Origin: Candidatus Heimdallarchaeota archaeon
GTDB taxonomy: Archaea > Asgardarchaeota > Heimdallarchaeia > Hodarchaeales > Hodarchaeaceae
Reading direction: 5' to 3'
Assembly (NCBI GenBank): GCA_048881705.1
Contig: JBHLSH010000011.1
Coordinates: forward strand, 1-64,000
Length of the DNA: 64,000 nucleotides
Part shown: positions 1,198-4,100 of the stretch, one piece after another
Numbering within the stretch: the first letter of the stretch is position 1
Layout of the letters: every line of letters starts with the position of its first letter
Program-made: the position numbers and the translations under genes
Notes under the pieces: generated by a model
Database searches by the model: none
What the model saw: only the letters and a program-made list of their open reading frames with translations
Told to the model about the DNA's origin: nothing

Positions 1198-4100
1198 CTA
1201 AGAAGTATCTCCCCCAAGAAGTTCGATAGTTCCATATAGGTTTTGATAGGAAAGCGTAATGGACGTTACCAATTCCCGAACTTCAGCGATTCTTCTCTCT
1301 ATTAGTTCCTTGTTTTGGTTCTCGTCATTCATGAGAAGATGAACCTCGTGCACTTTTTTCTGAATTTCATCTTTAAATTGGTTTAATAGCGGGAAAACTT
1401 CCTGATGGATGAGAATATTTAATGTGATATTTTCTTGCCCCCCTCTTGCCTCAGGACGATTCAAAAAATAGCCAAAAGATAAATTACTAATTCTTATTCC
1501 CCGAACCAGCACAAAATCAAAACTAGAATAAATTTCAGCATCAAGCGTGTCAGCGAATCCCGTGACAGAGAATGAGCGGTCAGATAGCTCCACCAATTTG
1601 GAGAAATTATCTTTGAGGATTTCGGGGATCACAACGATTGGAATTGGCCCGTGCGCTTGATCGAAATAGGAAACAACAACTCCCACCGAATGGTTGTCCA
1701 AACTGTTCCTAACAACTGTATCGGAAAAGTTACTGATATTATCCATTACTAGGCCTTTATCTAGACCAACTAACTCTGGTTTACGGAAAAATCTTACATA
1801 AACGATTGCACCCACGAAGATCAAGATAACAGCAATCCCGGCTACCAGAAATAGTTCGGTGGGGAGACTTGGAGGTACATAGGGAATACGCTGTTCCGCT
1901 AAGTTCAGATTGGTGAATGCTAAAGTATTTAAATTCCCGTCGTTGTCGCGGGTTGAGATCTGGTAAATTATATCCAGTGATGAAGTGTATTTATCGAGCA
2001 AGACTGTGATGATATAGCGATCATAAGGTCCACTCTTCCCAACAAATTCCATCGTTATGCTTGCAGTTTGTTGAAAGGTAGATGCCCCTCCTCCGCCATT
2101 TTGGATTGGTTCGAAGTTGTATGCTAAGATTACTTCAGCAATACCCGAACCTTCTTCAATTATATCAGCATAGAAGGTAATATTGGATGGATTCTGAACA
2201 TCAGGAGTTGTATACCACGCATTAACAACCCGTGGGGGGGACTCATCTTTGATCACAAAGGTGAAAGACTCTGACTTACTAATCTCATATGATAAAATAT
2301 GAACTACCTCTGTTATCACGGTAATATTAACTGTTGCCACCATATTTAAGTAGGTAAGGTCTTGCAGTTGAAAATCTAGCTCCCATAAATTTAGACTTCC
2401 CGAAGTTATGATACGTCTATCTTCGACAGAACCAATGTAAATTAAGACCTCTACCTGCTTGATATCGTTGCGTGAATCCGTGATATTGAACAAGAAGTTA
2501 TAGTGTCCCTCTGTATCATTTTTAGGGGTAAATTGGGCATCATTAACAACTGGCCTGCTTTCTACAAAGACGGATACAGAAACAATCTTCCCATAGTCTA
2601 TACTATCATATGGGTGTATTTCCGCTCTCCAGGTTTCGCTAGGTTTGGTTTGGTTGGCAGGAATTATCATCAGGCCATTAAACTGAGTTTCCAGGATGCC
2701 ATCAACATACCACTGAACGGAGGATGCATCAAGGTCATTATCAATGTCAGAAAAGGTATATATCAGAATTATTTCCTCGTCTTCCACGATTATCCCAGGA
2801 ACGGCTGGGTTTCCCGTTTCAAAAACAGGATTTGTTACTTTAGGAGCGGTGTTTTGGATTGTAACGGTCAAACTGGTTGCTAAGGGCCCAAATAGTTGCC
2901 CGTCTTTGGGGCGGATTGTCGCATACCATTGATCATTCTTGATTAATGCAGATACCGGTATGGTATATGAATCATTGAATGTGGTTTGCAGGTTGAGGTT
3001 TTTATACCATCTAATCTCTGTTCCTCCTTCACTATCCTCAGGTGAATCCAAAAAATCATAGGATAACGTCAAGCTTTCATTACTGTGTACTGGGTTTGGG
3101 ACCAAGGTGATATTTTCAACTGAAGGCGGAGCGTTGAATCCTCTGTATGAGACAAATTCAGTCGATGTAAAAACATTATTGCTCGTATCGTTCACAATGA
3201 TCCTAAACTTGACCAAACCATTTGGCATCAGGATGGTATCATTGATGAAGCCACCTGTGGTATTTCTCATCACGGCGAGAACTCCTGTCTGGGCCGAACC
3301 ACCAAAATAAGTTACATTAAGGATAACCTTGTCAATAACGCCCCAAACGTCCATTACGGTTGTATTAAAGGTACCATTTACACCTATCGTATGATCATAT
3401 GTTCCAACGAGGACCGTTGGGGGGTTAATGTCTTTTAGAAACGTGTGAGTCTTTACGGTTGGATCTGTGACATTGTTTCCAAAAATATCGGAGGTATTAA
3501 CAATCTGATACGTATAAAAACCACTGTATTCTATTGATACGGAGCTATTCGTCCAGTACGTTCCATTAAAACTCATAGAATATGCTGAATTATTTACTAA
3601 GAGAGTCGCATTCTTGATGGCCGATCCAGAATCTACAATATCGGCCCAGAAATTGGCCTGCCCTGTTCCTGACTCATCTACTCCAAAATTTACGAGTTGG
3701 GGAGGGGTAAAATCGCCATAAAGCGTTAACGCATGTATATAAACATTAAGGTCCGTAGTCTCGGCATTGATTTCGATTTCATGGTTCAGATTCATCCCAT
3801 TTCCTCCCATGAGCCACCGACCCCCGCCCACATCATATTGAGGAAATTGCCAGTTTTGACCTTCTTTTCTGGCAATACCACGACGATCCCCCGCGACAGA
3901 TTCAAATTGTAGGATTGCTCCCGTAGCATTGGAGGGTACGGTAACATAAGAATCAAGATCCCGGGTTGTCCATCCGTTTGAAGTAGCAGAAATATCGTCC
4001 CGATTTGTGTCTAACCAATCGACACTGTCACCGACCTCGGCAATTAGGTAGAAATGAGCTGTATTTCCAAGGAAATATTCAAATTGATCGTTATTGTCGA

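Follow-up and report, generated by a model that had tools for sequence, protein, structure and literature searches.

We examined a 64,000-nucleotide stretch (here, the window) from Candidatus Heimdallarchaeota archaeon (Hodarchaeales, Hodarchaeaceae; assembly GCA_048881705.1), comprising positions 1 to 64000 of contig JBHLSH010000011.1 (C11), for two long genes predicted to encode modular surface proteins. The genome (G000; 3.96 Mb) is assembled in 155 contigs, and C11 extends to 70,493 bp. The two longest frames of the window are open reading frame (ORF) A and ORF B, the latter open at the 3' window edge (Table 1). BLASTP aligned the two proteins collinearly, residues 720 to 1097 of A with 1296 to 1682 of B (170/396 identities, 43%; E = 6 × 10−78), confirming the shared stalk that the initial annotation of the window had placed, by motif, from position 3720 downward in A and from ~60872 onward in B. 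Additional, weaker matches stem from a ~97-amino-acid (aa) repeat that recurs in B. This Ig-like repeat had been counted twice in A and at least nine times in B; iterated hidden Markov models (HMMs) returned 2 and 10 copies, respectively, with eight complete copies of B and the start of the ninth inside the window. Reading C11 past 64000 (no N occurs between this position and the end of B at 65932) showed that B ends in a transmembrane (TM) helix and then a ~190-aa tail like that of A; therefore, the truncated paralogue ends as A does, which had been predicted. The two tails are 54% identical over 216 aa (E = 9 × 10−85) and have in common an F-x4-GP strand and an ARGG loop. The stalk, initially described as the only shared part, is thus one portion of an entire shared C-terminal chassis that includes the TM helix and tail.

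Table 1. Features of ORF A and ORF B, with window positions (identical to C11 positions) and, in parentheses, protein residues
Feature	Positions	Strand	Description
ORF A	1198..5871	-	1,557 aa: signal peptide, Ha-Hb-Hc head, D1-D2, 2 repeats, M1-M2, TM helix, longin tail
Head of A (aa 36-715)	3727..5766	-	Modules Ha, Hb, and Hc; no Pfam family
D1 of A (aa 716-813)	3433..3726	-	D-type beta-sandwich, start D-x-T-P-P-x-V
D2 of A (aa 816-912)	3136..3426	-	Second D-type beta-sandwich
Repeat 1 of A (aa 914-1010)	2842..3132	-	Counterpart of repeat 1 in B and in the C60 paralogue, 47-48% identity
Repeat 2 of A (aa 1013-1107)	2551..2835	-	Counterpart of the final repeat in B and in the C60 paralogue, 37-38% identity
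M1 (aa 1106-1199) and M2 (aa 1201-1335) of A	1867..2556	-	Membrane-proximal; M2 is the third D-type domain
TM helix of A (aa 1341-1359)	1795..1851	-	Followed by basic RFFRK
Cytoplasmic longin tail of A	1201..1782	-	194 aa; GP motif, loop Arg
ORF B	56990..64000	+	Continues to C11:65932, 2,980 aa in total; repeats 9-10, M1-M2, TM helix, and longin tail outside the window
Head of B	56990..60862	+	3 x (DUF2341 + Laminin_G_3); CBM_4_9-like insert in second unit
D1-D2 of B (aa 1292-1488)	60863..61453	+	47% identity to D1-D2 of A
Repeat array of B	61460..64000	+	10 copies in total; 8 complete within the window

Iterated HMM searches of all open frames of the genome gave a common chassis order of D1-D2, a variable number (n) of Ig-like repeats, M1-M2, TM helix, and tail. 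D1, D2, and M2 are of a single domain type, and one HMM picks up all three in each protein. The ~97-aa repeat occurs in 76 copies genome-wide, all within six ORFs: A (2 copies), B (10), C4a (12), C4b (13), C60 (at least 17), and C2 (22). Members of this six-gene core family have an N-terminal signal or anchor and a single TM helix near the C terminus. All six carry M1-M2, the TM helix, and the tail, the last being present in nine genes of the genome, and five of the six carry D1-D2; in C4b, which is otherwise collinear with its relatives, two repeats stand exactly in place of D1-D2. Modeling of D1-D2-repeat 1 of A (36 sequences; predicted local distance difference test [pLDDT] score of 90.9) gave three beta-sandwiches, for which the best fold matches were the BIg domains of SiiE (top match; Foldseek E = 8.5 × 10−9) and the FN3 tandems of contactins, titin, and receptor phosphatases.

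Repeats within one protein are about 30% identical (27 to 40% for those of A and B), so the copies are old. Since the two repeats of A match the first and last repeats of B and C60, the two ends of the array are fixed, and stalk length changes as copies between them are gained or lost. Repeat counts do not differ between sister-species orthologues, and the A and B orthologues of the sister species also share one contig, ~56 kb apart. Within the 22-repeat paralogue (C2:90718-103746; L005), copies are up to 96% identical, indicating recent internal amplification. Two family members in divergent orientation lie 2.7 kb apart at C4:67064-78130 and C4:80888-90142. The ~97-aa repeat was also found in arrays of 10 to 15 copies in bacterial-labelled proteins (P0162, P0167, and P0157), one of which has a Por_Secre_tail domain of the type IX secretion system (T9SS); the repeat itself is therefore not Asgard specific.

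As initially annotated, the heads of A and B are unrelated, with BLASTP returning only a signal-peptide match (E = 0.007). Pfam confirmed three DUF2341-LamG units in the head of B (Laminin_G_3, PF13385, 154.7 bits; DUF2341, PF10102, 71.2 bits; both above the gathering thresholds), and the CBM_4_9-like insert is a sub-threshold match. Besides B, four other paralogues exceed the Pfam cutoffs for DUF2341 and Laminin_G_3, and the heads of B, C2, C4a, and C4b are built from three to five such units. No Pfam family matched A at E ≤ 0.1, either as a whole or with the head alone, and A is therefore not a DUF2341 + Laminin_G_3 member; C60 likewise had no Pfam match. Profile-profile comparisons of Ha, Hb, and Hc with DUF2341, LamG, and CBM were all null. 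The triple repeat proposed for the head of A is clear for segments 1 and 3 (z = 7.4) and weaker for segments 1 and 2 (z = 3.6) and 2 and 3 (z = 1.4), and the proposed MAM likeness amounts to a sub-threshold Atlas lead (best score of 0.81, to a MAM-bearing viral cluster).

When relatives were included, the notion of two discrete head types gave way to one of mosaics drawn from a small module library: one to five LamG units, CBM, Ha/Hb/Hc, Hb alone, or a short head of ~240 to 290 aa. Mixed heads also occur, joining LamG units with Hb or Hc or reading Ha-Hb-Ha-CBM-Hb-Hc. The head of A is 56 to 63% identical to heads on members with 11 and 17 repeats, one of which is the full-length sister-species orthologue of C60. 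The Ha-Hb-Hc (abc) head is thus found with 2, 11, or 17 repeats, and the three-LamG head with 2, 5, 11, 16, 17, 20, or 22. A 2,586-aa family member from Kariarchaeaceae (P0163) has a putative, precomputed Pfam match to PF00100 (zona pellucida domain).

At the inner end of these proteins, the tail shows the highest conservation of any module when paralogues are compared (54 to 65% identity, versus 30 to 47% for the ectodomain chassis). In an alignment of eight tails of this genome (the ninth, C19:14913-17873, lies outside it), G73, P74, and R141 (P0003 numbering) are invariant, the arginine standing in a P-x-A-R-G-G loop. An AlphaFold2 model of the tail (34 sequences; pLDDT of 93.9) has the longin order beta-beta-alpha-beta-beta-beta-alpha-alpha, with GP at the beta1/beta2 turn and R141 between the strands at 97-108 and 116-126 (the beta4-beta5 loop); the tail consists of this longin domain and a helical hairpin, and then the stop codon. 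A Foldseek search with the model ranked a Lokiarchaeal longin, FLCN, and GATOR1 chains at the top (E = 10−4 to 10−3). Structural re-alignment gave VIA Z scores of 13.3 for the Lokiarchaeal longin (8yqg), 12.6 for FLCN (8dhb_J), 11.5 for Lst4, 10.8 to 11.1 for chains of the C9orf72-SMCR8 complex (11.1 for 6lt0_C, C9orf72-SMCR8-WDR41), ~10 for GATOR1 complex chains (10.6 for 9o5d_D), and 8.5 for DENND1. Longins of SNARE and TRAPP proteins and roadblocks scored lower than longins of the GTPase-activating protein (GAP) type. A LOV/PAS fold was rejected, as its Foldseek matches dropped well below the longins after re-alignment. Searches of PDB sequences with profiles of this tail and of the alternative tail described below gave chance-level matches only.

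We assign the tail to the longin domains of the folliculin/SMCR8/NPRL2 (GAP) class. The tail had initially been called uDENN; the longin part of that label stands, in the form of the folliculin class, whereas a DENN core is absent. Asgard longins of the FLCN/SMCR8 type with the GP motif and an arginine finger, features tied there to GAP longins, have been described (PMC12290439); that paper makes no mention of membrane anchoring, and the word "transmembrane" is absent from it. A profile search with the tail returned 198 clusters among 1.84 billion representatives, and in all proteins other than short fragments the match ends at or a few residues before the C terminus. More distant longin tails (~30% identity) end each of three tandem genes at C19:1-17873 (L007; >3,424, 1,546, and 987 aa), the ectodomains of which are without D1-D2, repeats, and M1-M2. 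Relatives in other genomes reach 8,800 to 10,400 aa.

The tail is not constant throughout the family, however. Most members carry the longin tail, but some carry another, so that a constant cytoplasmic tail holds for the majority only. Orthologues in three related genomes (G011, G015, and G016), and other database members, combine the full chassis with a different cytoplasmic tail of ~245 aa (L042:11068-11796 in G011; L051; L052). This alternative tail is found on two ectodomains, L1-D1-D2-r9 and Hb-r7, and in the present genome it ends two other surface ORFs of ~1,530 aa (C3:43626-48206 and C38:16857-21497). A relationship to the longin tail was rejected (hhalign probability of 0.2). The N-terminal half of the alternative tail gave a lead only to the roadblock proteins of the genome (hhalign probability of 26%; pairwise E = 7 × 10−4 over 72 columns). 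Free-standing Asgard relatives of ~233 aa were found in the Atlas (score of 0.93). A further surface ORF of 1,617 aa (C53:14722-19575; L008) combines five D-type domains and a single TM helix with a cytoplasmic tail of a third kind (~280 aa); directly after it lies a small-GTPase gene (C53:13722-14237) with a weak Gtr1_RagA pass (26.6 bits). Pfam gave no match to the alternative tail or to the C53 tail.

Among 24 genomes of the order, the stalk profile matched 21 and the tail profile 22. Strong full-length D1-D2 matches numbered 57, of which 34 lie in an open frame with the longin tail and 3 in a full chassis with the other tail; the remaining 20 frames are without a tail call, several being cut by contig ends. 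We retrieved and domain-mapped 40 regions from related genomes; the layout in 33 genes is [head]-D1-D2-rep(n)-M1-M2-tail, where n is 2, 5, 10, 11, 12, 16, 17, 22, or 23 (the M1 match was below threshold in 2 of the 33). Metagenome representatives show the same chassis pattern and further combinations, and with these included the repeat counts are 2, 5, 9 to 13, 16, 17, 20, 22, and 23. In all complete proteins that were found to contain the D1-D2 pair, the C-terminal end consists of M1-M2, a TM helix, and either the longin or the alternative tail, which upholds the proposed link between stalk and tail. The source names of relatives are mostly Hodarchaeales, Kariarchaeaceae, and Heimdallarchaeota, and database annotation of these proteins is limited to hypothetical, DUF2341, or LamG-like. 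In a survey of 400 genomes of the phylum, 17 of the 22 genomes in one genus-level clade had the full stalk versus 1 of 378 others; this sole match lies on a short contig from a genome that is 8% contaminated. At G012:C5:19022-19603 and G016:C79:13538-14116, the stalk stands in the 5' part of frames of 6,884 and 5,227 aa, respectively, that apparently reach the contig ends; these may be family members with 40 to 60 repeats.

We next compared the histories of the modules. In the stalk tree, members with the abc head fall into three clades, each nested among LamG-head members with strong support, and an approximately unbiased (AU) test rejected a single abc clade (log-likelihood difference of 68; P = 0.012). 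Tail and stalk trees conflict sharply for single genes. For example, the tail of L047 is 82% identical to that of L036, but in D1-D2 and M1-M2 L047 comes nearest to the C60 type (56 to 58%), and L027 groups with C4a by its stalk and with L026 by its tail. As for heads, A has a stalk closest to that of B (47%), yet its head is 56 to 63% identical to those of 11- and 17-repeat members. Because the nearest relatives differ between heads, chassis parts, and tails, we conclude that modules have been exchanged between paralogues. Together, the head/repeat combinations and the conflict between heads and the stalk tree bear out the initial proposal of a paralogous family with swappable heads and variable stalk length. 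In sister-species orthologue pairs, omega was 0.03 to 0.35 in every module and lowest in the tails of B and C2 (0.03 to 0.04). All modules are under purifying selection, and these are working genes.

The genes around A and B include a VWA surface protein, a TetR regulator, a glyoxalase, and others. The first of these, directly upstream of A on the same strand (window positions 6279-8402, minus strand), is a predicted surface protein of 707 aa with a signal peptide, a VWA domain (E = 3 × 10−7), beta-rich domains that look D-type-like by eye, a C-terminal TM anchor, and a short basic tail; it may be a coexpressed partner of A. Strong Rag-type GTPase genes lie near the 3' ends of both C4 paralogues (C4:66408-66983 and C4:91823-92356), and others occur on further contigs; the genome has nine strong Rag-type GTPases as well as Arf-like GTPases.

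The family has a constant chassis and tail, modular heads, a variable repeat number, and conflicting module histories. A and B thus belong to a lineage-specific, modular family of predicted type I single-pass surface proteins, which probably serve as a combinatorial set of receptors or adhesins. The modular part of the initial annotation was thereby substantiated; its "ligand-binding" and "receptor" wording is something we infer. Heads are assembled from a small module library, with modules swapped among paralogues. Because LamG and CBM families generally bind ligands, the lectin-type heads are expected to bind surface or environmental ligands, and a beads-on-a-string stalk would set the distance of the head from the membrane. 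The fold, motifs, and conservation of the tail and the gene neighborhood of other paralogues suggest that it may couple to cytoplasmic small GTPases of the Rag/Arf type, as a GAP or as a docking platform. A more far-reaching reading, which we hold to be possible but rather doubtful, is that these proteins are combinatorial transmembrane receptors in which exchangeable lectin-type heads, held by Ig-like stalks at a few discrete heights, feed through one TM helix at least two alternative outputs on Rag/Arf-type GTPases, a prokaryotic forerunner of eukaryotic adhesion-receptor signaling. One output would then be the GAP longin of folliculin type and the other a second domain that is possibly roadblock-like.

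Several results weigh against an interpretation as receptors. Ligand binding, surface display, and GTPase coupling are each read from domain families and folds. The B tail missed the Pfam Folliculin cutoff (PF11704; 15.0 bits, E = 0.022, versus 23.3), the A tail had no match to this family, and the 194-aa tail contains no DENN core. Diversifying selection on the heads was not seen in the sister-species pairs (omega of 0.07 to 0.18). No Rag-type or other GTPase gene lies beside A or B, and no Rag-type gene lies on C11, which would suit a purely structural role. The proteins might, with limited probability, form only a coat or adhesion layer (a glycocalyx, an S-layer-like canopy, or cell-cell contacts), with the tail used for anchoring, sorting, or docking to the cytoskeleton or to machinery of membrane remodeling, and with neither signal nor GAP activity. 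The tandem beta-sandwich stalks do resemble giant bacterial adhesins such as SiiE, discrete classes of repeat number would suit a layered coat, and longins can be passive platforms as well, as they are in TRAPP, SNAREs, and the SRP receptor, which are among the fold matches at Z scores of 6 to 8. However, the tail is the most conserved module, with the lowest omega in B and C2; it keeps the GP motif and the loop arginine; its best fold matches are GAP-type longins rather than SNARE or TRAPP longins; and two paralogues adjoin Rag-type genes.

The apparent mosaicism could be explained otherwise if head types were vertically inherited and gene conversion or unequal rates among paralogues had affected only the stalk and membrane-proximal domains. 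The tail tree is a near-polytomy at depth and did not reject abc monophyly (P = 0.345), several rows of the stalk and tail trees have long branches, and conversion is common among tandem or neighboring paralogues of repeat proteins. Head swap and stalk conversion between paralogues would each account for the exchange. Nevertheless, we regard this explanation as unlikely, given that mixed heads exist, that the alternative tail stands on two different ectodomains, and that C4b has repeats replacing D1-D2; moreover, modules of different histories have been joined either way, which is still modular exchange. It is highly improbable that the stalk is just a generic spacer of surface proteins that is not specifically tied to the longin tail. 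D-type domains do occur alone in other surface proteins, such as the C53 ORF with its five copies and other tail, and the ~97-aa repeat is present in bacterial proteins, including the one with a T9SS sorting domain. This alternative is nevertheless largely refuted by the uniform ending of complete proteins with the D1-D2 pair and by the near confinement of that pair to one genus-level clade.

We found no paper describing a fusion of surface protein and longin or the present family. New here are the architecture of the family as a whole, the exchange of modules, the second type of tail, and the narrow phylogenetic range. Asgard folliculin-type longins have been discussed, as soluble proteins, as possible ancestors of the eukaryotic Rag/Arf GAPs; in one Hodarchaeales clade, among archaea closely related to eukaryotes, such longins form the conserved inner end of a surface-protein family with shuffled outer parts. 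The resulting logic is testable, in that what is bound would depend on the head, the reach on the repeat number, and the output on the tail type, and natural chimeras with the same head on different stalks or the same chassis on different tails are available. If the tails regulate GTPases, coupling between the cell surface and small GTPases would predate eukaryotes.

With respect to known systems, the tail has the same longin fold, GP motif, and beta4-beta5 arginine as FLCN, SMCR8, NPRL2, Lst4/Lst7, and the Asgard FLCN-type longins. Unlike these, the longin here is the cytoplasmic end of single-pass surface proteins of 1,100 to >4,300 aa, has neither a DENN core nor a partner subunit in the same polypeptide, and misses the Folliculin cutoff. 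For the Hodarchaeales proteins from metagenome-assembled genomes that are named for DUF2341 or the LamG "jellyroll," those names cover the head only, and chassis, repeats, TM helix, and tail go unnamed. SiiE of Salmonella (PDB 2yn5 and 2yn3) and adhesins of the RTX/Bap type likewise have an array of Ig-like beta-sandwiches, distal binding modules, and a variable repeat number. However, those adhesins are exported by the type I secretion system (T1SS), stay attached at the outer membrane or the surface, and have no cytoplasmic domain, whereas the proteins here are predicted type I membrane proteins with one C-terminal TM helix, a basic stretch, and a conserved cytoplasmic domain of regulatory type. 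Contactins, receptor tyrosine phosphatases, Tie2, and gp130 are alike in having a tandem FN3-like stalk, a distal head, one TM segment, and a cytoplasmic signaling domain, and several eukaryotic adhesion receptors have a LamG- or MAM-like distal head. The output here would be a longin rather than a kinase or phosphatase, and no sequence homology to these receptors was shown; the likeness lies in the design rather than in common ancestry.

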